Shown: positions 1,379 to 31,013, counted from the stretch's first letter. The stretch: 33,061 nt of DNA from Nanobdellota archaeon (GCA_018829485.1 JAHJTU010000086.1:1-33061), one strand, 5' to 3'. Numbers and translations: made by a program. Notes: a model not told the origin generated them from the sequence alone.

Positions 1379-1388
1379 TTACCATAAC

Positions 1389-1403
1389 TTTTTTTCTTTT
1401 TTT
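1389..1403 (+). terminator. Oligo-T tract downstream of the 317..1378 gene
   Basis: T7-C-T7 run begins 11 nt after the stop codon, the archaeal oligo(T) terminator pattern. Confidence 0.35.
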
Positions 1404-1407
1404 ATTT

Positions 1408-2067
1408 TTATTCCCTATAAATCTCTTCAAAGATGTTTTTGATGATTTTGGCTTTTTTATTTCCTATTTTTTCAACTTCTGCAAGTTCTTGCTCAGTTGC
1501 ATTTGCAATTGCTTTTACTGTTTTGAATTTCTTTAGTAATGCTTTTGCTAAAGATGGTCCTACACTTGGCAAACCTTCAAGAATTATTTGTTGTTGTTCT
1601 GCCATTGTGTAAGCTTTCTTTTTGAATTTTAATCCATTCTCTGTTTTTCCTTTTTCAATTCTTTTTTGCAATGAAACAATAAACTCTGCTGTTTCATCAT
1701 AATCACTAGTAAATACTACTGGAATTTCATAATCTAACATAATACTAAGAAGCATTCCTCTTATTGCATTGGGATTGAAATTATTATATTCTGTTTTATA
1801 CAAATCACCTTCTACAATTACTAATGCTTTCTTGAATTGCTTTAATTCTTCAATTTGCCTGAATAATCTTTTATTTACCATAGAATTAATAAAATCAGAA
1901 GCAGTCTTCCTTTCAATTGCAACTTCTCCAATAATATAATCTGCAATAGGCAGTCTTTGGAATTCTATTTTTCCTCCAAGATTTACTATTTCATGTGCAA
2001 CAAGGCTATTTTTCTCTCTTTTATCAACAAGTATTTTCATTTTCTTTTCCTGGTTTTGCTCTTCCAT
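1408..2067 (-). CDS. xpf: XPF/Hef-type ERCC4 structure-specific nuclease with C-terminal (HhH)2
   Basis: ERCC4 signature VDKRE...IADYIIGEVAIERKTASDF (GDXnERKX3D type). C-terminal helix-hairpin-helix LEGLPSVGPSLAKALLKKF...EKIGNKKAKII. Confidence 0.9.
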   Translation of the reverse strand: MEEQNQEKKMKILVDKREKNSLVAHEIVNLGGKIEFQRLPIADYIIGEVAIERKTASDFINSMVNKRLFRQIEELKQFKKALVIVEGDLYKTEYNNFNPNAIRGMLLSIMLDYEIPVVFTSDYDETAEFIVSLQKRIEKGKTENGLKFKKKAYTMAEQQQIILEGLPSVGPSLAKALLKKFKTVKAIANATEQELAEVEKIGNKKAKIIKNIFEEIYRE

Positions 2068-3874: not shown

Positions 3875-5569
3875 ATGGGAAAAATTAAATTTAGACCAAT
3901 CCATGTTATTTGGCATATCACTAACTCTTGTTTTTTTAATTGCAAATATTGTTTTACTAATTCTTATCCAAACTACAATTCCCCACCAAAGAAATCACAT
4001 TTACAAACCATTGTAAAGAGGATAAATGAAAATAAGAGTATAAAAAATCTTTCAATAATTGGTGGAGAGCCACTTTTAATTAATGAGCTCCCAGAAGTAA
4101 TCGAAAATTTAAGGAAGGACATATCTGTTAATATTGATTCTACTTTAATTGGAATTAAAGATAAATATGTTGATTCTTTTAAAAGGGTTTTATTCTCAAC
4201 AACTATTGATAGTATTGATGAATATATAAATACCAAAACAAGACCCAATCATTCATCAAAAGAAACAATAAAGAATATTGAATTTTTATTAAATAAAGGA
4301 ATAAGAGTACAGGTAGTTATAGTTGTGACAAAAAATAATGTAAAAACTATTGAAAAAACCGCAAGATTTTTATTGAATTTAGGTGTTGAAAGAATTTCGA
4401 TTAATCAAATCAGAATGGTTGGAAGAGCTCTCGATTTTGATTATGAATATTTTTATGATAATTCCAAAGAGATTAAAAATGATATTGCAACCCTGTTAAA
4501 AAGATTAATAAAAGAGTATAAAAAGTCTCGGGTTTTAGCAAATAATTGGTATTGTGATGAGATTTTTGATATTGGTTATGAACTTCCACCAACTTGTTCA
4601 TGCGCTCTTTTTAAAGTGTGTATTGATTGGAATGGTTATCTCTATCCTTGTGAATTGATGCCTTTCTACTGGAGAGAATTTGAAAAAGTATACAGGTTTA
4701 AGAGAATTAATTTAAAAAAAAGTTCTATTTCAGATATTTTTAATCACTCTTCACTTTTCAATTTTTTTAGAGAAAAAATCTTAATTTACCCTCCAACATG
4801 CAGTAAATGTGATTATAAGAAAAAATGCAATCATGGTTGTAGATTTTATTCCTTCTTGTTCTCTACAAATCTTTTATCTCAAGATCCTTTATGTAAAAAA
4901 TTTATTTCTCTTTACGATGTAATAGGATATCAAAATTATTCTCCATTCTCAAAACAAGGAATTAAAAGACTAAAAGGGGGGGTTGCAGATTATTTGAAAA
5001 AAAACAGTAAGATTCTTGGTAAAAATATATATGATATTGGTTGTGGTGGCGGGGTTTGGACATTTTATTTAGAAGATTTGGGTAAAAAATTAATAGGAAT
5101 TGATAATAATCAGATTATGATTCTAATAGCGCAAGATTATAAAAAATTACACCATAAGAAATCAGAATTTATTTTCTCAGACATATTAAATGTAAATTAT
5201 CAGAAATCAGATACTATTTTAATGTTGGACAATCTTGTTTTAATGTTTTCGAAAAAAGACCTAACTAATATTCTAGAAAAAATCAAGAATAAAACTAAAA
5301 GATTAATATTAGAACTTAATAAAAACAAATTAAAAGAAGGTGTGCAAGAATACACTTTTAATTCTTTCGACATAAGAGAGATTGTTTTAAGGAAGAATAA
5401 AAATATCTGTGAGAGAATCTTTCTGAACAAACAAACGGGCGCAGAATTCAAATTAAAAAATTATGATTGGACTAAAAGAGATCTAATTAATTTCCTAAAA
5501 AAACAAGGAGATGTCTTTGAAGATGAATCCAATAATTCTTATTTAATAAGATTGGATTTTCATCACTAA
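3875..5569 (+). CDS. Radical SAM / SPASM-domain protein fused to a C-terminal class I SAM-dependent methyltransferase
   Basis: CX3CX2C cluster (NSCFFNCKYC). SPASM-like Cys motifs CSCALFKVCIDWNGYLYPC and CSKCDYKKKCNHGC (CX2CX5CX3C). Methyltransferase motif I at IYDIGCGGGVW. Confidence 0.85.
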   Translation: MGKIKFRPIHVIWHITNSCFFNCKYCFTNSYPNYNSPPKKSHLQTIVKRINENKSIKNLSIIGGEPLLINELPEVIENLRKDISVNIDSTLIGIKDKYVDSFKRVLFSTTIDSIDEYINTKTRPNHSSKETIKNIEFLLNKGIRVQVVIVVTKNNVKTIEKTARFLLNLGVERISINQIRMVGRALDFDYEYFYDNSKEIKNDIATLLKRLIKEYKKSRVLANNWYCDEIFDIGYELPPTCSCALFKVCIDWNGYLYPCELMPFYWREFEKVYRFKRINLKKSSISDIFNHSSLFNFFREKILIYPPTCSKCDYKKKCNHGCRFYSFLFSTNLLSQDPLCKKFISLYDVIGYQNYSPFSKQGIKRLKGGVADYLKKNSKILGKNIYDIGCGGGVWTFYLEDLGKKLIGIDNNQIMILIAQDYKKLHHKKSEFIFSDILNVNYQKSDTILMLDNLVLMFSKKDLTNILEKIKNKTKRLILELNKNKLKEGVQEYTFNSFDIREIVLRKNKNICERIFLNKQTGAEFKLKNYDWTKRDLINFLKKQGDVFEDESNNSYLIRLDFHH

Positions 5570-10944: not shown

Positions 10945-11721
10945 TTATTTATTCTTTTTTGCTCTATGTTTTTCAACTTTGTCTGCTGCGCTTTTTACTT
11001 CTTTAGAATGCTTCATTAATGGCTGCATTATTCCTGAAAATGCTCTTTCCATTGCTTTAACATCTGTTCCCAAGTCTTTAACACCCTTGCCATATTCATT
11101 TACTTTTTCAAGCATTGCTGCATGAATATTCATTAAAGAATTATCAATCTTGTCAATTCTTTTTTCTATTCTGTCAATTTCTCTATCTACTCTTTCTTTC
11201 CATCCTTGAACATCACCAATTTTTTCCATAAATGCTCTCCATCTTTCTTCTATAATACTTTCAGCAATTTCTTCAAATGCTTCTGTTGTATAGCCTTGTT
11301 CATAACCAGGATATTCTTGTTCAGATTCATATTGCTGCTGTTCTTGTTGCTCTGGCTGTGTTTCAGGATAATAATTATAATCTTGCTGCTGTCCATAATC
11401 ATATTCTTGCTCATTTTGTTCAGGATATTGTGAAGGTCCTGGAACAAATTCATTCATTCCTTGTTCTGGCATTTGTCTTGGTGTGCCTTGCGGCATTCCT
11501 GACATTCTTGTTGGCTCTTGGGGTGACCTTTGAGATGGCATTGGAGCATCAGGCACTTCAGAGAACTCATCTGATCTTATTGATTGCTTAACTCTGGCTT
11601 GATTAAAGGCATCATTAACATCCTTATCAGTGTAACCCTGCTCTCTTAATCTTCTAATAATCTCTCCATCATTCATACCTGTTTTTTGCATCTCCAAGAC
11701 AAGTTTTGTTGGTGCTGGCAT
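10945..11721 (-). CDS. Hypothetical protein: small N-terminal helical domain, Q/E/Y/P-rich low-complexity linker, C-terminal coiled coil
   Basis: About 100 aa of PQ/EQ/Y-rich sequence (QEYDYGQQQDYNYYPETQPEQQEQQQYESEQEYPGYEQGY), then heptad-like REIDRIEKRIDKIDNSL. Stop is 2 nt from the C39-like gene start. Confidence 0.7.
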   Translation of the reverse strand: MPAPTKLVLEMQKTGMNDGEIIRRLREQGYTDKDVNDAFNQARVKQSIRSDEFSEVPDAPMPSQRSPQEPTRMSGMPQGTPRQMPEQGMNEFVPGPSQYPEQNEQEYDYGQQQDYNYYPETQPEQQEQQQYESEQEYPGYEQGYTTEAFEEIAESIIEERWRAFMEKIGDVQGWKERVDREIDRIEKRIDKIDNSLMNIHAAMLEKVNEYGKGVKDLGTDVKAMERAFSGIMQPLMKHSKEVKSAADKVEKHRAKKNK

Positions 11722-12250: not shown

Positions 12251-14491
12251 ATGCTTTTTAAGACTGGTACAAAACTTTTTGGTTATGAAGTTGTAAAAGA
12301 AGGACAGGAAAATCTCATGTATATTAATTGCTTTGGATATGCATTAGTTCCAAGTATTTCTGATGATGCTGCAATGATGGCACGTGTTATTGACAATTTA
12401 ATTGAAAATCCTGGAACAAGCAGAGTAATACTTTCACAACAGAAGAATTATGTTTACAGCCATGAAGAAACACAAATATTAATTGAAGTTGCAAATATTT
12501 ACACTTACTTGATAAGAGAAGAGAGAATTCTTGGTATGGAGAATATAAGAAATGATAAACTTGGAATGTTGAATTACCTTACTCTTACATTATTAAGATC
12601 TGATCCAATTGGCTGTTATGTTATGGCTAATAGATTAATTAGAGAAGAAAAAACACTTTCAAGAATAAAAGATTCTGAATATTTGAGAAGATTATCAAAA
12701 ATTTATGAATTGCTTGATAAAAGCTCTTTGATAAGAAGTGTAAAAGATAGATTAGCTGGATTTAAAGTTGGTACAAGACAAATTTATTATAACTTGTTCA
12801 GGCCAGATGTATTGCCTAATTTTACATTTACAAGATTAGTTTCTGAATTACCTATGGATGCAGAGATTATTGATGAATATTCTATTGGACAAGGAGAAGA
12901 AAAAAGTGATGTTACTATTTTGAAAAAAAAGGATGAAGTAAAACATTTTTACCATATAATGCCCCCAGAATTTAAGTTAGATGAAGATTCTTTAATGCTT
13001 CTTGATATTGCAAAACAAGTTCTTTTAGAGCATAGGCCAAGAGCAGAAGAATTTCTTGATCCTGACAGAATGAGACAAGTTTTCTTTAATATTGCAAGAG
13101 ATTTGCTTACTGAACTTGCACAGAGCAAAAGAATTAATTTAGATTATAAAGAATTATTAAAGCTTGCAAGAATTTTAGTAAGATATACTGTTGGTTTTGG
13201 TTTGATAGAGATTTTATTGCTTGATGATAAATTGCAAGATATTGTTATTAATGCCCCAATTGGATTAACACAGATTTTTGTAAGACATGCTGATTATGAT
13301 GAATGTGTTACAAATATTATGCCTTCACAAGAAGATGCTGAAAGTTGGGCTGCTAAATTTAGAATGATTTCTGGAAGACCTTTAGATGAAGCACATCCTG
13401 TTTTAGATACTGAACTTACTGTGCAGAATATAAGTGCAAGAGTAAGTATTATTCAAGAGCCATTAAGTCCTTATGGATTAGCATATGCAATTAGAAGATT
13501 CAGAGAAAAGCCTTGGACTTTACCTTTGTTTGTAAAAATAGGAATGATGAGTCCTCTTGCTGCTGGCTTGTTTTCATTTTTAATTGATGGAAGCAGAACA
13601 ATGTTAATTGCAGGAACAAGAAGTTCTGGAAAAACATCTTTGCTTGGAAGTTTATTATTTGAGTTAATGCCAAAATACAGAGTAATTGTTATTGAAGATA
13701 CATTAGAATTGCCAGTTGAAGCATTAAGAAAGCTTGGTTATGATGTGCAAAGAATGAAAGTAAGAGCTGCATTACTAAAAGAAACAACAGAAGTTGCAGC
13801 TGATGAAGGTATTAGAACATCATTAAGACTTGGAGACAGTGTTTTAATTATTGGTGAAGTTAGAAGTCTAGAAGCAAAAGCATTATATGAAGCAATGAGA
13901 GTTGGTGCATTGGCAAATACAGTAGCAGGAACTATTCATGGTGCAAGTCCGTATGCTATTTTTGATAGAGTTGTAAATGATTTGCAAGTGCCAGTTACAA
14001 GTTTTAAAGCAACTGATATTATTGCAGTTGCTAATCCAATTAAATCACCAGATGGAATGCATTCTTGGAGAAGATTAGTACAAATAAGTGAAGTTAGAAA
14101 AAATTGGAAAGAAGATCCTTTAGCTGAAAAAGGATTTGTTGATTTAATGAAATACAATGCTGAGAAAGATGAACTTGAACCAACAGATGAATTAATTAAT
14201 GGGGAATCTGAAACTTTGAAATCAATTGCAGGAAATGTAAAAGAATGGGCAGGTAATTGGGATGCAATATGGGATAATATTCAATTAAGAGCAAAAATTA
14301 AAGAAACACTTGTGCGACATGGAGATAAAATTCCTGATTTGCTTGAAGCTCCATTTATTGTAAAATCAAATAATGCATTTCATAATCTTTCTGATTCTGT
14401 TTTAAGAGAACATGGAAGTTTAGACAGCAAAAGAATCTTTGAAGAATGGAATGAATGGCTCAGAAGAGAAATTAAGAGAGCGAAGGTTTAG
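12251..14491 (+). CDS. Archaeal type IV pilus/archaellum-type secretion ATPase (PilB/FlaI/VirB11 superfamily) with a long N-terminal extension
   Basis: Walker A IAGTRSSGKTSLL, Walker B/Asp box RVIVIEDTLELP, His box AGTIHGASP. About 440 aa of N-terminal domain precede the ATPase core. Confidence 0.9.
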   Translation: MLFKTGTKLFGYEVVKEGQENLMYINCFGYALVPSISDDAAMMARVIDNLIENPGTSRVILSQQKNYVYSHEETQILIEVANIYTYLIREERILGMENIRNDKLGMLNYLTLTLLRSDPIGCYVMANRLIREEKTLSRIKDSEYLRRLSKIYELLDKSSLIRSVKDRLAGFKVGTRQIYYNLFRPDVLPNFTFTRLVSELPMDAEIIDEYSIGQGEEKSDVTILKKKDEVKHFYHIMPPEFKLDEDSLMLLDIAKQVLLEHRPRAEEFLDPDRMRQVFFNIARDLLTELAQSKRINLDYKELLKLARILVRYTVGFGLIEILLLDDKLQDIVINAPIGLTQIFVRHADYDECVTNIMPSQEDAESWAAKFRMISGRPLDEAHPVLDTELTVQNISARVSIIQEPLSPYGLAYAIRRFREKPWTLPLFVKIGMMSPLAAGLFSFLIDGSRTMLIAGTRSSGKTSLLGSLLFELMPKYRVIVIEDTLELPVEALRKLGYDVQRMKVRAALLKETTEVAADEGIRTSLRLGDSVLIIGEVRSLEAKALYEAMRVGALANTVAGTIHGASPYAIFDRVVNDLQVPVTSFKATDIIAVANPIKSPDGMHSWRRLVQISEVRKNWKEDPLAEKGFVDLMKYNAEKDELEPTDELINGESETLKSIAGNVKEWAGNWDAIWDNIQLRAKIKETLVRHGDKIPDLLEAPFIVKSNNAFHNLSDSVLREHGSLDSKRIFEEWNEWLRREIKRAKV
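14454..14490 (+). repeat. Direct repeat copy 1 (3' end of the ATPase CDS)
   Basis: aatggctcagaagagaaattaagagagcgaaggttta recurs at 15821-15857 with one synonymous mismatch. Confidence 0.9.
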
Positions 14492-16253: not shown

Positions 16254-18395
16254 ATGGCAAATCCAGATGTTAAGGATATTTTGAAAAGATATGAAGCAAG
16301 ACTTAACAGAGAACTTGAGTATGAAACTACAAATGTTGAGTTTACAAAAGAGTATGAGCAATTCAAGAGAGAAGCATTCAAGCCTTTAAGCAGATACGAA
16401 AAGTGGGCAAAATTTGCTTCAAAAATCCTGAAAGTAAAACCATCAGGAAAGAACTCAGAAAAATTTGACAAAGCATTAAGCATTGTTCATTCTGAAATAA
16501 CTTCTGAAGAATCTATGAGCTTGGCTGTTAATGCTTTTATTGTTACAATACTCTTGACTGTTATTGGTTTTGCAAGTTATGTTTTTCTTACAGGAGGAGA
16601 ATATCTTCCATTAATGTATTTATTTTTAGGAGTACTCTTTTCAGGATTCTTATTTTATTGGCTTTATTCTTTTCCATTAATACAAGCAAAAATATGGAGG
16701 CTTAAGTCTAGTTCTCAACTTGTACAGGCATTATTATTTATTGTCATTTACATGAAGCACACTCCTAATTTAGAACGAGCAATAAAATTTGCTTCAGATC
16801 ATTTGCAACCACCATTGTCATTAGACTTCAAGAAAATATTTTGGGATGTTGAAGTTGGAAAATATTCTACAATAAGGGAAAGTATTGACAATTACTTGGA
16901 AACTTGGAGAGACGGTAATTTAGAATTTGTTGAAGCAATGCACTTAATTGAAAGTTCATTGTATGAGCCAAAAGAGTACAAGAGAATTGAGATTTTGGAA
17001 AAAAGTTTGACTACTGTTTTGGAAGGTGTACAAGAAAAAATGCTTTCTTATACTCATGATATTAAAGCACCATTAACAAACATCTACATGTTGGGAATTG
17101 TTCTGCCAACACTTGCATTAGCATTAATACCATTAGCATCTGCATTGCTTGGTGGATTAATAACTTGGCAGCACATTATTGTGATGTTTAATATTATTGT
17201 TCCATTTTTTGTTTATTACATGACTTCTCAAGTATTGTTAACAAGACCAGCAGGTTATGGTGAAACAGAATTACTTGAATTGCATCCGGATTATGCTAAG
17301 TATAAGAGTAATACACCTAATTTAATTGCATTTTTAATTGCATTACCTTTTTTCATTTTAGGAATTTTGCCATTATTTATGCTTTTTCCTAATTTTGCTT
17401 CTAGCATTGGGTTAGCAGATTTTGATATATTCTTTTTAGGAAAGTTTTTTGATGTAAAAACAACAGCAACAGGATTAGCAGGGCCATTTGGATTAGGTGC
17501 TGTATGCTTAAGCTTATTTTTGCCATTATCAATAAGTTTGTTCTTTGCAGTAAGCTATAGCATGAAAACATCACAATTAATTAAAACAAGAAAAGAAACA
17601 AAGAAGTTAGAAGATGAATATGGTTCTGCATTATTTCAATTAGGTAATAGGTTATCTTCAGGAGTTCCAGCTGAAATGGCATTTGGAAGAGTTGCTGAAG
17701 TATTGCATGGAACACCAACAGGAAAATTCTTTTCTTTAGTTAATAATAATATTCAGAATGGAATGTCTGTTAAGGAAGCGATTTTTAACAGGCAAAGAGG
17801 AGCAATTATTTATTTTCCTTCATCATTAATTAAAACTTCAATGCATATTCTTATTGAAGGAGCAAGAAAAGGATTAAAAATAGCATCAGAAAGCATGATT
17901 AGTATTGCAGAGCATGTTAAAAGTATTCATAGAATTGAAGAAAGATTAAAAGATTTAGTTGCAGATGTTGTTGTAAGTATGAAAAGCAATATCTCCTTTT
18001 TAGCTCCTATTCTTGGTGGTGTTGTTATTGGATTAGCTGCAATGATAACAATGATAATAAATTACTTGACAACAATGATGGCGGCTTTAGAAACAGGTGA
18101 AGCAGCTAGTATTGGAGGAGCAGAAGGAATTGTTACATTATTTAATATAGAAAGCATGATTCCACCTTATTTCTTACAAATTGCAATTGGAATATATCTA
18201 GTTCAGATTATATTCATACTAACTCAAACTGTTGTTGTAATTGAAAATGGTGCTGACAAACTTACAGAAAGAAATGAAATAGCTAAAAATCTTTATAAAG
18301 GAATTTCATTTTATTTGATAATTGCATTAATTTCAATACTAGTACTAACATTGCTTGCATCATTAGTTATGACACAAATTGGGCCATTAGGATAA
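16254..18395 (+). CDS. Type IV pilus/archaellum platform membrane protein (PilC/TadC/FlaJ-like, T2SS-F domains)
   Basis: 713-aa polytopic protein. Cytoplasmic helical domains alternate with TM bundles. YGSALFQLGNRLSSGVPAEMAFGRVAEVL resembles the T2SS-F domain. It pairs with the upstream ATPase. Confidence 0.75.
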   Translation: MANPDVKDILKRYEARLNRELEYETTNVEFTKEYEQFKREAFKPLSRYEKWAKFASKILKVKPSGKNSEKFDKALSIVHSEITSEESMSLAVNAFIVTILLTVIGFASYVFLTGGEYLPLMYLFLGVLFSGFLFYWLYSFPLIQAKIWRLKSSSQLVQALLFIVIYMKHTPNLERAIKFASDHLQPPLSLDFKKIFWDVEVGKYSTIRESIDNYLETWRDGNLEFVEAMHLIESSLYEPKEYKRIEILEKSLTTVLEGVQEKMLSYTHDIKAPLTNIYMLGIVLPTLALALIPLASALLGGLITWQHIIVMFNIIVPFFVYYMTSQVLLTRPAGYGETELLELHPDYAKYKSNTPNLIAFLIALPFFILGILPLFMLFPNFASSIGLADFDIFFLGKFFDVKTTATGLAGPFGLGAVCLSLFLPLSISLFFAVSYSMKTSQLIKTRKETKKLEDEYGSALFQLGNRLSSGVPAEMAFGRVAEVLHGTPTGKFFSLVNNNIQNGMSVKEAIFNRQRGAIIYFPSSLIKTSMHILIEGARKGLKIASESMISIAEHVKSIHRIEERLKDLVADVVVSMKSNISFLAPILGGVVIGLAAMITMIINYLTTMMAALETGEAASIGGAEGIVTLFNIESMIPPYFLQIAIGIYLVQIIFILTQTVVVIENGADKLTERNEIAKNLYKGISFYLIIALISILVLTLLASLVMTQIGPLG

Positions 18396-25257: not shown

Positions 25258-25288
25258 TTATTGGTAAATATACTTGTTTATATAAAAA

Positions 25289-25296
25289 TTTATAAA
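25289..25296 (+). promoter_or_regulatory. TATA box (TTTATAAA) for radA
   Basis: Exactly 21 nt upstream of the ATG at 25318. A second TTTATATA sits just upstream at 25278-25285. Confidence 0.4.
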
Positions 25297-25317
25297 GTTT
25301 GGCACTTTAAATTGAAT

Positions 25318-26337
25318 ATGGCTGAGGAAAAGGAGTTAGAAAAAGAGCAAGTTAAAGTTAAGGAAGAAAAAGAGCAGGAAAAAGAGAAAGAAATAGAGCT
25401 TACACTTACAGACTTGCCTGGAATTGGTGAAGTTATTGCAAAGAAGCTTACTGAGGCAGGTTATGGTGATTTGATTAGTGTTGCTGCTTTATCTCCAAGA
25501 GAATTAATTTCATTAGCTGGACTTACTGAAACAGCAGCAAGAAAAGTAATTCAAGCAGCAAGAAAAGTATTGGATTTAGGATTTACTAGTGCTACAAAAT
25601 TCCTTGAAAAAAGACAAGAAGTAATTAAAATCACAACAGGAAGCAAGAATCTTAATGAATTGCTTGGTGGTGGTGTTGAAACCAAGGCAATAACAGAAGC
25701 TTTTGGTTCTTATGGTTCAGGAAAAACTCAGATTGGACATGTTTTAGCTGTATCAACACAAATGCCAATTGAAAAAGGTGGTGCTGGTGGCATGGCAGTT
25801 TATATTGATACTGAAGGAACATTTAGGCCTGAAAGAATTAAGCAAATTGCAAAATCATTAGGAGTTAAACCAGAAGATGCATTAAAGAATATTTTAGTTG
25901 CAAGAGCTTTAAGTTCAGATCATCAAATGCTTTTAGCTGAAAAAGTTGTTGATTTAATTAGGGAAGGAAATCCTATAAAATTGTTAATTGTTGATTCTCT
26001 TATTAGTTTATTCAGAGCAGAGTTTACAGGAAGAGGAACTTTAGCTGATAGACAGCAGAAATTAAACAAGCATTTGCATACTCTTCATAAAATTGCAGAT
26101 TCTTATAATTTAGCAGTTTATGTTACTAATCAGGTTATGTCAAGGCCAGATATTTTATTTGGTGATCCTACAGTTGCAATTGGAGGACATATTGTTGGAC
26201 ATGCATCAACATTCAGAATATATTTAAGAAAAGGCAAGAAAGATTCAAGAGTTGCTAAACTTATTGATTCACCTAATTTGCCTGATTCAGAATGTGTTTT
26301 CTTTATCAAAGAAGGTGGAGTTTCTGATAAGGAGTAG
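25318..26337 (+). CDS. radA: DNA repair and recombination protein RadA
   Basis: N-terminal HhH LTDLPGIGEVIAKKLTEAGY, Walker A GSYGSGKTQ, Walker B LLIVDS, and RadA/Rad51 core similarity throughout. Start at ATG 25318 (MAEEKELEK); the track start is a TTG extension across the promoter. Confidence 0.95.
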   Translation: MAEEKELEKEQVKVKEEKEQEKEKEIELTLTDLPGIGEVIAKKLTEAGYGDLISVAALSPRELISLAGLTETAARKVIQAARKVLDLGFTSATKFLEKRQEVIKITTGSKNLNELLGGGVETKAITEAFGSYGSGKTQIGHVLAVSTQMPIEKGGAGGMAVYIDTEGTFRPERIKQIAKSLGVKPEDALKNILVARALSSDHQMLLAEKVVDLIREGNPIKLLIVDSLISLFRAEFTGRGTLADRQQKLNKHLHTLHKIADSYNLAVYVTNQVMSRPDILFGDPTVAIGGHIVGHASTFRIYLRKGKKDSRVAKLIDSPNLPDSECVFFIKEGGVSDKE

Positions 26338-26344
26338 GAAGAAA

Positions 26345-26500
26345 TGCCCCTACTAGGATTCGAACCTAGATTGTGGCCTTTTTGTTATCTATAGGCGAAC
26401 GGGGATTCGAACCCCGATTACAACCTTTTTGCTACTAACCGCAAGGTCGCGTACTTTCCAATTATACTATTCGCCTTTTTGAATTTTACACTATAGGGGC
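26345..26500 (-). other. Outer tRNA-like element: 5' acceptor strand and start of a D-arm (26477-26500) plus T-arm and 3' acceptor strand (26345-26391), enclosing the tRNA below
   Basis: Minus strand reads GCCCCTA-TA-GTGTAA... at 26500 downward. At the other end it reads ...A-GGCCA-CAAT-CTAGG-TTCGAAT-CCTAG-TAGGGGC-A. The 7-bp acceptor complementarity is perfect and the T-loop is consensus. No D-arm 3' strand or anticodon arm is present. Confidence 0.45.
26392..26476 (-). tRNA. tRNA-Arg (anticodon GCG) with a 12-nt intron at the canonical 37/38 position
   Basis: Hand-folded. Acceptor AGGCGAA/TTCGCCT (7 bp). U8, D-stem GTAT/GTAC, G18G19, A21. Anticodon stem CGACC/GGTTG. Loop TTGCGG[ttagtagcaaaa]A. 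Variable loop TAAT. T-arm CGGGG-TTCGAAT-CCCCG. Discriminator A. Confidence 0.8.
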
Positions 26501-26509
26501 TTGATTTAG

Positions 26510-27037
26510 TTATCTTATTCTTCTTGCTTTTGTTTGTGTTAAATCATAGATTTTTGATGGTTTTGCTTTGAGTTTTCCTGCATTTATAATTATTGCATGC
26601 TTCTTAAATTTTTTAGGGATTTCATTAATGTTTGTTGCAAATTTCTTATTTGTTATATTTACTGAAGTTGTGATAAATGGCTTTTTTGATGCAAGTATGT
26701 ATTTAGTAAAAGGATGTTTAGGAATTCTTACTCCAATTGTATCTTTTCCATAATTAACTTCTTTACTTATTGCTTTTTTATTTTTCAGCTTTATTATAAA
26801 AGTATATTTTCCTGGAAGTTTTCTTAAATATTTTTCATGCTCTTTCCTTAGTACACAATTCTTTCTTATCCATTCTTTACTTGCAATTATTGAAAAGGGC
26901 TTCTTGCTATTTTTGAGCTTTCTTATTACTTTTACTGATTTTGAATTTGTTGCATCTGTTCCAATACCATAAATTGTATCAGTTGGGTAAATTAGGATTC
27001 TTCCTTTATTAATGGCTTTTACAATATTTTGTTTCAT
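26510..27037 (-). CDS. tsaC: L-threonylcarbamoyladenylate synthase, short YrdC/TsaC type
   Basis: ILIYPTDTIYGIGTDATNSKSVKVIRKLKNSKKPFSII is the YrdC/Sua5 N-terminal signature. At 175 aa it has no Sua5 C-terminal domain. Confidence 0.85.
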   Translation of the reverse strand: MKQNIVKAINKGRILIYPTDTIYGIGTDATNSKSVKVIRKLKNSKKPFSIIASKEWIRKNCVLRKEHEKYLRKLPGKYTFIIKLKNKKAISKEVNYGKDTIGVRIPKHPFTKYILASKKPFITTSVNITNKKFATNINEIPKKFKKHAIIINAGKLKAKPSKIYDLTQTKARRIR

Positions 27038-27567: not shown

Positions 27568-28173
27568 ATGCAAGCACAAGAAAAATTAACAAAAGAACAA
27601 TTAGAACAAATAAAAAAATTTCAGGAATTGCCTAAAGAAAAACAACAAGAAATACTTGAACAACAATGCATATTCTGCCAAATTTCTCAAGGTAAAGTTG
27701 ATACAATAAAAGTTTTTGAAGATTTTGATATGCTTGCTGTTTTAGATATAAATCCTGCATCTAAAGGACATATTCTTATTTTTCCTAAGAAACATTATCA
27801 GTTATTTTTCCAATTACCAGATAGTATAAGGAATAAGTTATTTGAAATTGCACAGAAAATTTCAATTTATCTTGTTAATATTCTTAAATGTGAAGGAATA
27901 AATCTTTATGTAGCAAATGGAGCAGCTGCAGGACAAAGAGTTCCCCATTTTGTTTTACATGTAATTCCAAGATTTGAAAATGATGGCATAAATTTTGATT
28001 GGCAATCTCAAAAAACAGATAAGAAAGAATTAGAGAAAATTGCAAAATTATTAAGAGAAAATTTAGCAAAAGAAAAAAAGCAAAAACAAGAGAAAGCAGT
28101 TCCAAAAGAACAAATTGAAAAAGAGCAGCAAAAACTTGAGAAGGAATTAAAGAAATTTAGAAGAGTGCCATAA
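27568..28173 (+). CDS. HIT-family (histidine triad) protein with K/E/Q-rich N- and C-terminal extensions
   Basis: CIFCQISQGKV...FEDFDMLAVLDINPASKGHILIFPKKH...AAGQRVPHFVLHVIPR. The triad reads H-F-V-L-H rather than HxHxH. Confidence 0.8.
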   Translation: MQAQEKLTKEQLEQIKKFQELPKEKQQEILEQQCIFCQISQGKVDTIKVFEDFDMLAVLDINPASKGHILIFPKKHYQLFFQLPDSIRNKLFEIAQKISIYLVNILKCEGINLYVANGAAAGQRVPHFVLHVIPRFENDGINFDWQSQKTDKKELEKIAKLLRENLAKEKKQKQEKAVPKEQIEKEQQKLEKELKKFRRVP

Positions 28174-29002
28174 TTATTTCAAAAACATTTCCTAAAAGTA
28201 ATGTTATTATAAAGGCAATTAAAAATGCTGGAACAAAAGGAATTCCTTGTCTGATTAATACTTTCTTCTTTTCTTTTCTTAAAAGTGCAATATCTTTTTT
28301 ACTTAATCCATCCCAAGTTGGCTTTATTTCTTTATTACCTATTTTTACTGTTTGCGCAAGCCAATCTCCCTCTGTTAATTTGTCTGATGTAATCTCTTGA
28401 ATTAAAGCAACTTTCTCAGAAATCTTTGCAATAAGGTAAAGATAATATAAGAGTATTATCAAAAATGAAAACAAAATCCAAAACCAATTTTTTAATATAA
28501 TAGCTCCAAGAACAAAAGCAAGACAAAGAAGTAGATATGGTAATGGCACTTTTTTATTTGTTCTCTTAAATTCCTTGTAAAAAGAAGTTTTGTTTTTCCA
28601 AGTATAGATAATCAAGAAGAATAAACCATAAAATGCTCCCACAATAAGCAAATTAAGAATAAAGACAAATGCTGATGGTATTAAAGATGAAATTATTAGT
28701 TTTGGTGGTTCTGCAAAAACAATTCCTAGAACTATTAGCAATTTAGCATCTCCACCAGCAAAAATTCTTGCATAATAGAATAAATGAGCAATTACAAAAA
28801 AGATAGCAAAGTAAATTACTCCAGAAACAAAGAATGAAATATCTTTTTCAAGGAAAGAAAATATTAATCTTGTAAAGAGGGCAATTGCAATAAGTGAGAA
28901 ATTTAGCCAATCTGGAATCTCTCTTTTTTTTAAATCCCATATAGAAGCAACTACTAAGCCAATCAAAATTAGTATAATTAAAAAATTGACTATCATTATC
29001 AT
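28157..29002 (-). CDS. Type IV prepilin/preflagellin peptidase (A24 aspartic peptidase; PibD/FlaK/EppA-like)
   Basis: Polytopic. First Asp motif is IWDLKKREIPDW and second is FAGGDAKLLIVLG (GxGD type). C-terminal GIPFVPAF. Confidence 0.85.
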   Translation of the reverse strand: MIMIVNFLIILILIGLVVASIWDLKKREIPDWLNFSLIAIALFTRLIFSFLEKDISFFVSGVIYFAIFFVIAHLFYYARIFAGGDAKLLIVLGIVFAEPPKLIISSLIPSAFVFILNLLIVGAFYGLFFLIIYTWKNKTSFYKEFKRTNKKVPLPYLLLCLAFVLGAIILKNWFWILFSFLIILLYYLYLIAKISEKVALIQEITSDKLTEGDWLAQTVKIGNKEIKPTWDGLSKKDIALLRKEKKKVLIRQGIPFVPAFLIAFIITLLLGNVFEIIMALF

Positions 29003-29525: not shown

Positions 29526-31013
29526 ATGCCTGAATCAACTAGTTCAAGAAGTAGTGTAAATTTTACTAATATGGGATTTCAAAATTTACAAGGAACTTTG
29601 CTTGGAAGTATTATTTCTGGCGCAATTATATTTGGTGCAATTTTCGGAATTTTATTTGGAATAACAGGATTTGCATTATTTGGTTTTGCAGGAGTTTTTG
29701 GAATTCTTGCTGGTATTGTGCTTGGAATGGCAGTAGGAGCTGGTTTGGGTTTCTTATTTACATTAACAACATCTGAGAAAACAGGACCAATAACAAAGAA
29801 ATTAATTTTAGCTGGAATATTAGCATCTTTGTTTGGTTATTTTGGATATGCCTTTCTTGGCATTTTTGGATTTTGGATAGGAATTGCTGTTGGAATGGCA
29901 CTTGGATTTTTAATGCCACCTGAAGCACTTAGCACAATTATTGCATTTTCTATTGTTGTATTTATTATTTATATTGCATTCTTATGGTGGCAGTCAGGAG
30001 CATTGGAATTATTTTTCAGTCCTTTAGGTTTTAGTTCAGAAAGAATTATGCTTGGTTTAGAAAGGGGAGTAACATGCATGACAGATCCTATTCAATGCTT
30101 TTTCAAGCCATTTTATGATTGGAGTGAACCCACTGTTGAAAACAAAGAAGAGGAAGTTTCTGTTAAAGTTGATTTTTCCACCACCCAGTCTGTTTATTTT
30201 GAAAAAGAAAAAATATCTATAAGAACAGCAATTATTGTAAATAATCCAACTGAAGATGCTTACTATACTCGCCCATTGTGTTATCTTGATGGAGAACCAT
30301 TAGATGTGGAAGAAACATCAAAAGTTCAAAATGGAATGATTTATTTTGGTAAAAGCAATGTTGAACAAAGAGCAACAGTTGTTTGTGAAAACAAAGATGG
30401 ACTTGAACTAGAAGAAGGAAAAGATGCACAAGCATTTGATTTTGAATTGCATTTAATAAGGCCAGTAAAAACAAAAACTGAATGGAATGTTTATACAATG
30501 AATGAACAAATTCTTAAAAATAAAGCTAATCCTTTTGAAGATGTGAATGAACCTAATTTAAGAAATAGGGTTGTTTTAAGCAATATGCTTTTTGATTCTC
30601 CTGTAAAAATTTCAGCTGGTAGTAATGATGATCAGCCATTTTCAGATGCTAAATCAATTCCTTTCTTTATTGCATTCCAGAAAAAAGATATTTATGGAGA
30701 AATTTTAGCAGTAGATTCTTTGAAAATAGAAAATCCAATAAGCAGTGTTGTAAGCATTTCTGATTGCGAATCTTTTACAAGAGGGAGTGATGGATATTAT
30801 TTAACAAGAGATAAATTAACCAAAATCAGCTCTTTAGCAAATGAGAGAGATATTCCTATTTTCATTAATTGTTATCTTTCAGTTAGTGGAACAAGAATGG
30901 ATAGGCAAGTTCCTGAAAAAACAGTTATTAAAGTAGAATCAGAATTTGGTTTTGAATCAGTATATAAAAAATCAATAACTGTTATATCGGAAGGACAAAA
31001 GCAAGAAATTTAA
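29526..31013 (+). CDS. Membrane protein: N-terminal glycine-zipper TM bundle and a large extracytoplasmic C-terminal domain
   Basis: About 170 aa of GxxxG-rich TM helices (GFALFGFAGVFGILAGIVLGMAVGAGLGFLF), followed by about 320 aa of soluble, beta-rich-looking sequence. Confidence 0.65.
   Translation: MPESTSSRSSVNFTNMGFQNLQGTLLGSIISGAIIFGAIFGILFGITGFALFGFAGVFGILAGIVLGMAVGAGLGFLFTLTTSEKTGPITKKLILAGILASLFGYFGYAFLGIFGFWIGIAVGMALGFLMPPEALSTIIAFSIVVFIIYIAFLWWQSGALELFFSPLGFSSERIMLGLERGVTCMTDPIQCFFKPFYDWSEPTVENKEEEVSVKVDFSTTQSVYFEKEKISIRTAIIVNNPTEDAYYTRPLCYLDGEPLDVEETSKVQNGMIYFGKSNVEQRATVVCENKDGLELEEGKDAQAFDFELHLIRPVKTKTEWNVYTMNEQILKNKANPFEDVNEPNLRNRVVLSNMLFDSPVKISAGSNDDQPFSDAKSIPFFIAFQKKDIYGEILAVDSLKIENPISSVVSISDCESFTRGSDGYYLTRDKLTKISSLANERDIPIFINCYLSVSGTRMDRQVPEKTVIKVESEFGFESVYKKSITVISEGQKQEI

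Follow-up and report, generated by a model that had tools for sequence, protein, structure and literature searches.

How a single-copy transfer RNA (tRNA) gene breaks, splits or is replaced without lethality is an open question in tRNA evolution, and it bears on the origins of introns, split tRNAs and permuted tRNAs. Archaeal genomes usually carry one gene for each tRNA isoacceptor. The question is raised by a locus of 156 nucleotides (nt) in a Nanobdellota archaeon (GCA_018829485.1 JAHJTU010000086.1:1-33061), in which a complete tRNA gene lies between the two ends of a second tRNA-like element. The whole stretch that was analysed, called the window here, is 33,061 nt long and comes from a contig of about 30% G+C; all coordinates count from its first letter. 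The nest is on the minus strand, from 26500 to 26345, in the order outer 5′ piece, inner tRNA, outer 3′ piece. An original prediction on this DNA had left three readings side by side, namely pieces of a split or tri-split tRNA, a tRNA gene disrupted by the acquisition of another tRNA, and an extended processing helix. Our comparison with related genomes favors the second one. The resident tRNA-Arg(GCG) gene of a Pacearchaeota-like lineage was probably broken in place, and a second complete tRNA-Arg(GCG) gene now lies between its surviving ends. Read in this way, the locus is a snapshot of in-place tRNA gene replacement and not a new type of split tRNA.

The outer parts of the nest have well-formed tRNA stems. 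On the minus strand, 26500-26477 (24 nt) reads GCCCCTATAGTGTAAAATTCAAAA, starting with GCCCCTA-TA-GTGT-AA, and 26391-26345 reads TAGATAACAAAA-A-GGCCA-CAAT-CTAGG-TTCGAAT-CCTAG-TAGGGGC-A. The outer acceptor helix GCCCCTA/TAGGGGC forms 7/7 pairs, the second T-stem forms 5/5 pairs, and its T-loop is the consensus, in agreement with the 7-bp acceptor helix and second T-arm that had been predicted. The spacers between the outer pieces and the inner tRNA are 9 nt on the 5′ side and 12 nt on the 3′ side. In addition, the motif CAAAAAGG had been noted three times at the locus; these three copies (26474-26481, 26424-26431, and 26377-26384) were found again, together with a fourth one elsewhere in the window. 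The TGGCC or GGCCT strand that had been reported as missing is indeed absent from the minus strand of the locus.

The inner tRNA (26392..26476, minus strand, 85 nt) was recognized by Rfam, by a covariance model of its orthologues (described below) and by the pairing of its stems. It scored 50.9 bits against Rfam RF00005 (cutoff 29) and 62.4 bits (E 1e-14) against the model of eight orthologues, which is the top match of this model in the window. Furthermore, it is the only tRNA that ARAGORN and Rfam found in the window. Its stems pair 7/4/5/5 and its T-loop is the consensus. The acceptor AGGCGAA/TTCGCCT (A1-U72) is paired at 7/7 positions, the discriminator is A73, and the CCA end is not encoded. 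The anticodon arm reads CGACC-TTGCGG...A-GGTTG, with the anticodon GCG at 26440..26442 on the minus strand, and is interrupted at position 37/38 by a 12-nt intron, TTAGTAGCAAAA (26427..26438, minus strand).

This intron was delimited using RNAfold and a purpose-written scan for the bulge-helix-bulge (BHB) motif, which looks for a central helix of 4 bp with a 3-nt bulge on the 3′ side of either strand and recovers the inner intron as well as the introns of the relatives L007 and L138. The BHB motif of the inner intron has the central helix TTGC/GCAA, the bulges GG|T and AA|A, and an outer helix of 5-6 bp; it is a relaxed form of the motif, and its inner helix is short. The nucleotides A20, C35, G36, and A73 are arginine identity elements, and the inner tRNA has the whole Arg(GCG) set, with the anticodon GCG, A20 (in the D-loop AATTGGAAA), C35, G36, and A73. 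ARAGORN labels the inner tRNA as Ala(TGC) or Phe(AAA), depending on the option, because it misplaces the intron, and the tRNA-Arg(GCG) of L002 is likewise misassigned. The earlier assignment to arginine is upheld, and the anticodon GCG is borne out by the loop (TTGCGG..A), which is the same as in six intron-less orthologues, and by the BHB motif at 37/38. From these features we identify the inner gene as a predicted tRNA-Arg(GCG) gene with a 12-nt intron at position 37/38.

To see what stands at this position in other genomes, relatives were fetched via RadA and Sua5 homologues, which led to syntenic contigs. The radA gene (25261..26337, plus strand; Pfam Rad51, 6e-95) is convergent with the tRNA locus and served as the synteny anchor, and a gene for a Sua5/TsaC-type threonylcarbamoyl-AMP synthase (26510..27037, minus strand; Pfam PF01300, 1.3e-36) lies directly upstream of the locus. 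The gene order RPA, radA, tRNA (on the opposite strand), aS21, EF1-beta, HIT, and peptidase A24 is conserved. We found that a single tRNA-Arg(GCG) is convergent with radA in nine loci (L002, L005, L006, L007, L010, L011, L012, L135, and L138). Sua5 is directly upstream of the tRNA in L005, L010, L011, and L138, and a decayed remnant of it is present in L012. Thus, the intact tRNA in relatives that the original prediction had named as a check exists in nine loci, which counts against the more exotic readings.

All of these orthologues have the anticodon GCG and a GC-rich acceptor like the outer one. Six of them (L005, L006, L010, L011, L012, and L135) have no intron. The tRNA of L002 has a 36-nt intron at 37/38, that of L007 has a D-loop intron of about 62 nt and a 40-nt intron at 37/38, and that of L138 has one of 94 nt at 37/38. 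All four of these introns, 36-94 nt long, are homologous, with at most 1/500 shuffles scoring as high. Eight of the syntenic genes were used for the covariance model and the alignment. In this alignment the acceptor is GCYCYYR/YRGGRGC, with 100% of the cells paired and 11 pairs showing compensatory change.

Two of the orthologues have unusual introns. In L007 (tRNA at about 5105-5280, minus strand) the two introns are paralogous to each other (0/500 shuffles as high), which suggests, as far as the sequences go, a duplication or transposition of an intron inside one gene of a Pacearchaeota-like genome. In L138 (tRNA at 1381-1547, plus strand) the intron contains an internal duplication of the intron unit of the clade and two perfect 7-bp hairpins. 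The pre-tRNA fold of L138 is very stable (z = -5.3), and base 1 of this tRNA is the G of the Sua5 stop codon.

The outer pieces match this orthologous gene at both ends. The outer 5′ piece (positions 1-15, GCCCCTA-TA-GTGT-AA; 26486..26500, minus strand) is over positions 1-13 identical to L002 at 12/13 and to L006, L007, and L010 at 11/13 positions, and it follows the Sua5 stop codon in the same place as the tRNA genes of L005, L011, L012, and L138. The outer 3′ piece (positions 38-73, A-GGCCA-CAAT-CTAGG-TTCGAAT-CCTAG-TAGGGGC-A; 26345..26379, minus strand) was assigned by its identity with L138 and by the orthologue model, against which it scored 16.9 bits (E 0.018), the second-best match in the window. 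L138 is the nearest relative by Sua5 identity (73%), and its tRNA reads ...AGAC-A-TGGCC-TTGCGG, then the 94-nt intron, whose end is GCAAAA|A-GGCCA-CAAT-CCAGG-TTCAAAT-CCTGG-CAGGGGC-A. The outer 3′ piece is identical to this 3′ half at 30/34 positions, including GGCCA-CAAT, and where the two differ in the T-stem (position 2) and at pair 7-66, both partners have changed so that pairing is kept. The model score and this identity exceed a chance resemblance. Furthermore, the "missing" TGGCC strand is intact in L138, where it pairs with the same GGCCA-CAAT. The outer acceptor also fits the pairs G1-C72, C2-G71, and C4-G69, which are invariant in the eight orthologues. Since the outer ends match the single syntenic orthologue of the relatives, they are the remains of a resident tRNA-Arg(GCG) gene. 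The reading of the original prediction as a tRNA disrupted by the acquisition of another one is thereby strengthened by the intact syntenic gene, the matching ends and the TGGCC/GGCCA pairing of L138.

The 12 nt in front of the outer 3′ exon, TAGATAACAAAA (26380..26391, minus strand), were compared with the introns of the relatives. They contain the 3′ strand of a BHB motif (ACAA-AA|A), and the introns of L002 and L007 have the same tail, ACAAAA|AGG, with GCAAAA|AGG in L138. Thus, the outer gene would have had an intron at 37/38, because an intron-type tail survives before its 3′ exon. This accords with the earlier claim that the outer 3′ piece starts at position 38 behind an intron-type tail, as the same CAAAA|AGG ends the introns of L002, L007, and L138. 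Another claim, that CAAAAAGG is tied to splice junctions, also held, for 2/3 of the copies at the locus are intron-tail/exon junctions. A rival reading takes TAGATAACAAAA as a remnant of the D-loop rather than as an intron tail (compare TGGATAACAC in L006 and L012). What the outer gene lacks is the head of its intron and about positions 16-37, which comprise the remainder of the D-arm, the anticodon and the 5′ strand of its stem. Neither the 3′ strand of the D-arm nor the anticodon with its 5′ stem strand is present in 26345-26500, and the outer gene is therefore a remnant and not a gene.

Meanwhile, the inner gene differs from the remnant that surrounds it. Only 21/34 positions of the 3′ half and 7/13 positions of the 5′ end are identical between the inner tRNA and the outer pieces. 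The inner body (positions 8-65) is nearest to the tRNA-Arg of L007 (37/42 identical). Moreover, the inner acceptor, with A1-U72, G2-C71, and G3-C70, breaks the invariant pairs G1-C72, C2-G71, and C4-G69 of the eight orthologues. This atypical acceptor bears on the origin of the inner gene and not on its being a tRNA, as the helix is still perfect. Judging from these identities, the inner gene appears to be a separate copy and not a recent duplicate of the outer gene. In GTDB genomes, a search with the outer 3′ piece returned one irrelevant match in Nocardioides.

However, several observations weigh against the replacement of a resident gene by a second copy. First, the relatives that were compared have a RadA identity of at most 83%, and there is no intermediate state among them. 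Second, the inner acceptor is unlike that of any orthologue, and its source was not found: an exact 21-mer of the inner T-arm and acceptor gave one chance match in JGI metagenomes, in GC-rich non-tRNA DNA, and a 24-mer of the same region gave no match in viral contigs. Third, the remnant shows no decay, as its acceptor is paired at 7/7 and its T-stem at 5/5 positions, its T-loop is the consensus, and its differences from L138 are compensatory. The undamaged stems mean that the break was recent on the evolutionary scale or that the remnant is still under selection. Fourth, the first CAAAA|AGG lies exactly at the 5′ end of the inner tRNA, and a simple insertion leaves this placement unexplained.

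How the nest arose is less certain. The inner gene may have come from a related lineage or from a paralogue. It may have inserted into the outer gene, possibly into the 37/38 intron, with loss of the outer 5′ exon at that time or soon after. One reading of the origin is instead a single replacement of positions 16-37 and the intron head by foreign DNA. The CAAAA|AGG at the inner 5′ end has a 9-nt identity with the outer intron-exon junction, and this hints at a recombination through the shared 9 nt. We also considered CCTATAG (7 nt) and CAAAAAGGC (9 nt) as target-site duplications; deleting either unit gives no clean gene, and a 7-nt direct repeat within 156 nt is expected by chance.

A more specific version of this history is possible, though unlikely: the inner gene would have entered, or arisen in, the 37/38 BHB intron of the resident gene, and the 5′ exon of the host would have been deleted later. 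As long as this state lasted, splicing of a single precursor would have given the host tRNA, and the excised intron would have been trimmed at its ends to give the guest. On each side, the flank of the inner tRNA either ends in the intron sequence CAAAA|AGG of the clade or is similar to it. The right flank is an intact intron tail, and the 9-nt spacer on the left, AATTCAAAA (26477..26485, minus strand), ends in the first CAAAA|AGG and may be left over from the intron of the outer gene or have come in as the leader of the new gene. Furthermore, the introns of 36-94 nt that relatives have at this site grow by internal duplication. The flanks joined together have a weak likeness to intron I2 of L007, as 31/500 shuffles score as high. 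The 94-nt intron of L138 is no more similar to the inner tRNA than shuffles are, and it has no sign of a decayed guest tRNA. A known case of a tRNA intron that houses a functional RNA is that of archaeal pre-tRNA-Trp, with its box C/D small RNA. The locus would be similar, with a second functional RNA released from the same precursor, had the inner gene first inserted into the outer intron. However, the hosted RNA would here be a complete tRNA and the host is now broken, so the comparison could apply only to a past state.

Under the preferred reading, the resident gene is broken and replaced, and the inner tRNA would be the only functional tRNA of the locus; the outer gene is redundant because the inner tRNA is the same isoacceptor (GCG). 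The promoter sequences of the clade suggest how it may be expressed. The free-standing tRNA genes of L002, L007, and L010 have TTTATAA at -31 to -23 of the tRNA start, which suits a transcript that begins at +1 or close to it. No TATA box was found at -31..-23 before the genes that abut Sua5 (L005, L011, L012, and L138), nor before either tRNA start in the window. Without a box at the usual spacing, we infer co-transcription with Sua5, itself a tRNA-modification gene, and the tRNA genes that abut the Sua5 stop codon are probably co-transcribed with it in general. The inner tRNA would thus be transcribed with, or from within, Sua5. The outer 5′ piece would be cut away with the leader, by a 5′ processing enzyme such as RNase P, and the outer 3′ piece with the trailer, by a 3′ endonuclease such as tRNase Z. 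The splicing endonuclease would cut out the inner intron, the exons would be ligated, and CCA would be added post-transcriptionally, giving the mature ends AGGCGAA.../...UUCGCCUA-CCA. The outer pieces would be vestigial, and they may transiently fold as an acceptor/T-arm minihelix in the precursor.

Could this minihelix be the reason why the outer pieces are kept? In that case, the outer pieces would be selected as an acceptor/T-arm minihelix that clamps leader and trailer, as a processing or stabilising scaffold, for example as an entry site at which RNase P and tRNase Z release the tRNA out of the Sua5 transcript. The outer helices of 7 bp and 5 bp have no mismatch and the T-loop is the consensus, a 176-nt fold retains the outer helix and is stabler than shuffles (z = -3.4), and the promoter is absent at the usual spacing, so that the tRNA must be cut from a longer transcript. 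However, the Sua5-adjacent loci L005, L011, L012, and L138 mature a plain tRNA without such a clamp. The arrangement occurs only in this genome, and its pieces are fully explained as orthologous remnants. In addition, the two T-arms mispair in the minimum-energy fold, which breaks the inner cloverleaf. The extended processing helix of the original prediction fares no better, as no BHB motif flanks the inner tRNA: when both ends of the inner tRNA were taken as the cuts, the BHB scan gave a sole candidate with a central mismatch, a 2-bp outer helix and no inner helix. We consider a selected scaffold quite unlikely.

A split or tri-split tRNA, in which the outer pieces would still function and a middle transcribed elsewhere would be trans-spliced to them through a BHB motif using the tail UAGAUAACAAAA, is very unlikely. 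The outer 3′ piece starts at position 38 behind an intact BHB 3′ strand (ACAA-AA|A), and split tRNAs are known in Nanoarchaeum equitans (10.64898/2026.05.13.725050). However, the same locus already encodes tRNA-Arg(GCG), and a middle piece supplied in trans is not needed because the inner tRNA has the same anticodon. The outer 5′ piece ends inside the D-loop and has no complementary trailer, and the 3′ piece has no promoter and directly abuts the inner tRNA. No matching piece was found in the window, where a search for a second TGGCC-TTGCGG-like piece returned only the inner tRNA itself and a site in a coding region, and the orthologue of L138 is an ordinary contiguous gene. The BHB scan found nothing credible that joins the outer 5′ piece to the outer 3′ piece. 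Thus, this part of the original prediction was not sustained: the isoacceptor is intact, and the window offers neither a middle piece nor a BHB motif between the outer pieces. A second exact CCTTGCGG was noticed at 11486-11493 (plus strand; 0.02 expected by chance), and it lies in a coding region without tRNA-like stems and was taken as a coincidence.

The split and tri-split tRNA genes of Nanoarchaeum equitans and Caldivirga maquilingensis do resemble the locus in having a short 5′ fragment together with a free-standing 3′ half that starts at position 38, after a BHB 3′ strand. They differ from it in that the pieces here have no promoters of their own and no complementary pair of leader and trailer, and the isoacceptor is intact at the same place.

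Another reading makes the whole nest one tRNA with three introns, in which the inner body is joined to the outer acceptor (exons 1-15, inner 16-37, inner 38-65, and outer 66-73). What looks like the inner acceptor would in this case be a helix between introns, and the mature ends would be GCCCCUA.../...UAGGGGCA-CCA. Both parts of the hybrid have the form usual in the clade, so that it would resemble the mature tRNA of L007, which is also a precedent in the clade for a D-loop intron. For such a hybrid, the BHB scan gave only one weak candidate, at 15|40 (one A-U and three G-U central pairs), and none at 65|66. The intron required at 65|66 thus has no BHB motif, and it would hold a complete orthologous 3′ half. 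Furthermore, the inner acceptor is paired at 7/7 positions, the inner D-stem (A12-U23) and the inner 5′ segment are adapted to each other, and the inner tRNA alone scores as a full tRNA. We find the three-intron tRNA hardly credible. Multiple-intron tRNA genes, with intron duplication and transposition, are known from Thermoproteales, and the clade studied here has similar features in the paralogous introns of L007 and the homologous introns of L002 (36 nt) and L138 (94 nt). However, the outer interruption of the nest is not spliceable, as an essential exon is missing and no BHB motif spans the insert.

An assembly artefact, that is, a chimeric join of the tRNA-Arg loci of two strains, is extremely unlikely as well. 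The window is a contig of a metagenome-assembled genome. The Logan assembly of SRR6514730 (L133), from the same population, independently reproduces the end of radA and the outer 3′ piece up to 26370, where its contig ends in the outer T-arm, which may be due to strain variation or low coverage, and the full nest rests on one assembly. However, the outer and inner genes share identical runs of only 8-11 nt (CAAAAAGG and GGTTCGAATCC), which we judge too short for joins at the usual k-mer sizes of assemblers. In addition, both junctions are within 156 nt and can be spanned by single reads, and the flanking gene order is that of the relatives.

Two further readings were rejected outright: a permuted tRNA by the order outer 5′ piece, inner tRNA, outer 3′ piece, and a remnant of an attachment (att) site by the 21/34 identity, the 9- and 12-nt spacers and the neighbors Sua5 and RadA. 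Integration of the SSV1 type or pNOB8 type duplicates att sites in archaeal tRNA genes, as in the 44-bp tRNA-Arg repeat of SSV1 (PMC3293823), and a complete tRNA with a repeat of its 3′ (or 5′) part is common to such duplications and the nest. However, att repeats are near-identical to the neighboring tRNA and bracket a provirus, whereas here the identity is 21/34 and nothing lies between. According to Pfam, the neighbors of the locus are housekeeping genes, and no integrase or other mobile-element gene is adjacent to it.

The closest known cases are disrupted tRNA genes. In Caldiarchaeum subterraneum, the fragment tRNA-Thr-F, the 5′ part of an old gene, lies upstream of tRNA-Thr-II (Sugahara et al. 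2012, PMC3293823), and a mobile element of about 1.8 kb with a recombinase is found between fragment and gene (PMC3293823). Partial tRNA fragments in Aeropyrum pernix and recently split tRNAs in Desulfurococcales have also been described (Chan et al. 2011, PMC3218864). As in Caldiarchaeum and Aeropyrum, a piece of the original gene lies here beside an intact gene of the same isoacceptor, the two genes are unlike in intron content, and the disruption is read as recent. However, one fragment is left in those genomes, whereas here both ends survive and nest the new gene, without an element or integrase. Our full-text searches of the literature turned up no report of one tRNA lying within the remains, or within an intron, of another. 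Thus, the locus belongs to a known class, the disrupted archaeal tRNA gene, and a nest in which both ends survive was not found described.

How such a break could be tolerated may be explained by codon usage. In the long open reading frames (ORFs) of the window, CGT and CGC together account for 6/9123 codons (0.07%), all CGN codons for 13, and AGA alone for 278. This tRNA is little used because CGT and CGC are very rare, which fits the unusually varied structures that its gene has in the clade. With CGU and CGC so seldom used, selection on tRNA-Arg(GCG) may be relaxed and a rearrangement tolerable, although this step is less certain.

Some other observations were made during this work. On the plus strand, the three CAAAAAGG copies read as CCTTTTTG (T5) tracts, which lie 40-144 nt past the radA stop (26337). 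The tRNA locus may double as a radA terminator, because oligo-T tracts are archaeal termination signals. Two long ORFs of the window have no Pfam match (16254-18395, plus strand, 713 aa, and 29526-31013, plus strand, 495 aa), and they sit near the genes for a type IV pilus/secretion ATPase (12251-14491) and a prepilin peptidase (28157-29002). Finally, the pattern of two GGTTCGAATCC 24-54 nt apart was tried as a finder of further nests and was unspecific, with more than 120 matches in viral contigs. Among the paired GGTTCGAATCC sites of the viral contigs L013-L132, 71/121 are a complete tRNA with a second, orphan T-arm-like hairpin closely behind it, whose sequence does not repeat that of the first T-arm.

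The detection of such loci has a practical side. ARAGORN in default mode detected the tRNA of neither L002 nor L007, and Rfam at the gathering score misses the intron-containing tRNAs of L002, L007, and L138. Default tRNA finders would thus give wrong tRNA inventories for DPANN genomes of this kind, with the inner tRNA mislabelled and three orthologues missed.

For the evolution of tRNA genes, the value of the locus is that the old and the new copy of one isoacceptor are interleaved within 156 nt and that the relatives keep the state before the break. This suggests that rarely used tRNAs with long, changeable introns are a site of such evolutionary experiments. If the inner gene was indeed hosted by the 37/38 intron of the resident gene, it would be the first intron-hosted tRNA, and intron-hosting would offer a concrete route to the replacement of archaeal tRNA genes or to separate 5′ and 3′ fragments.

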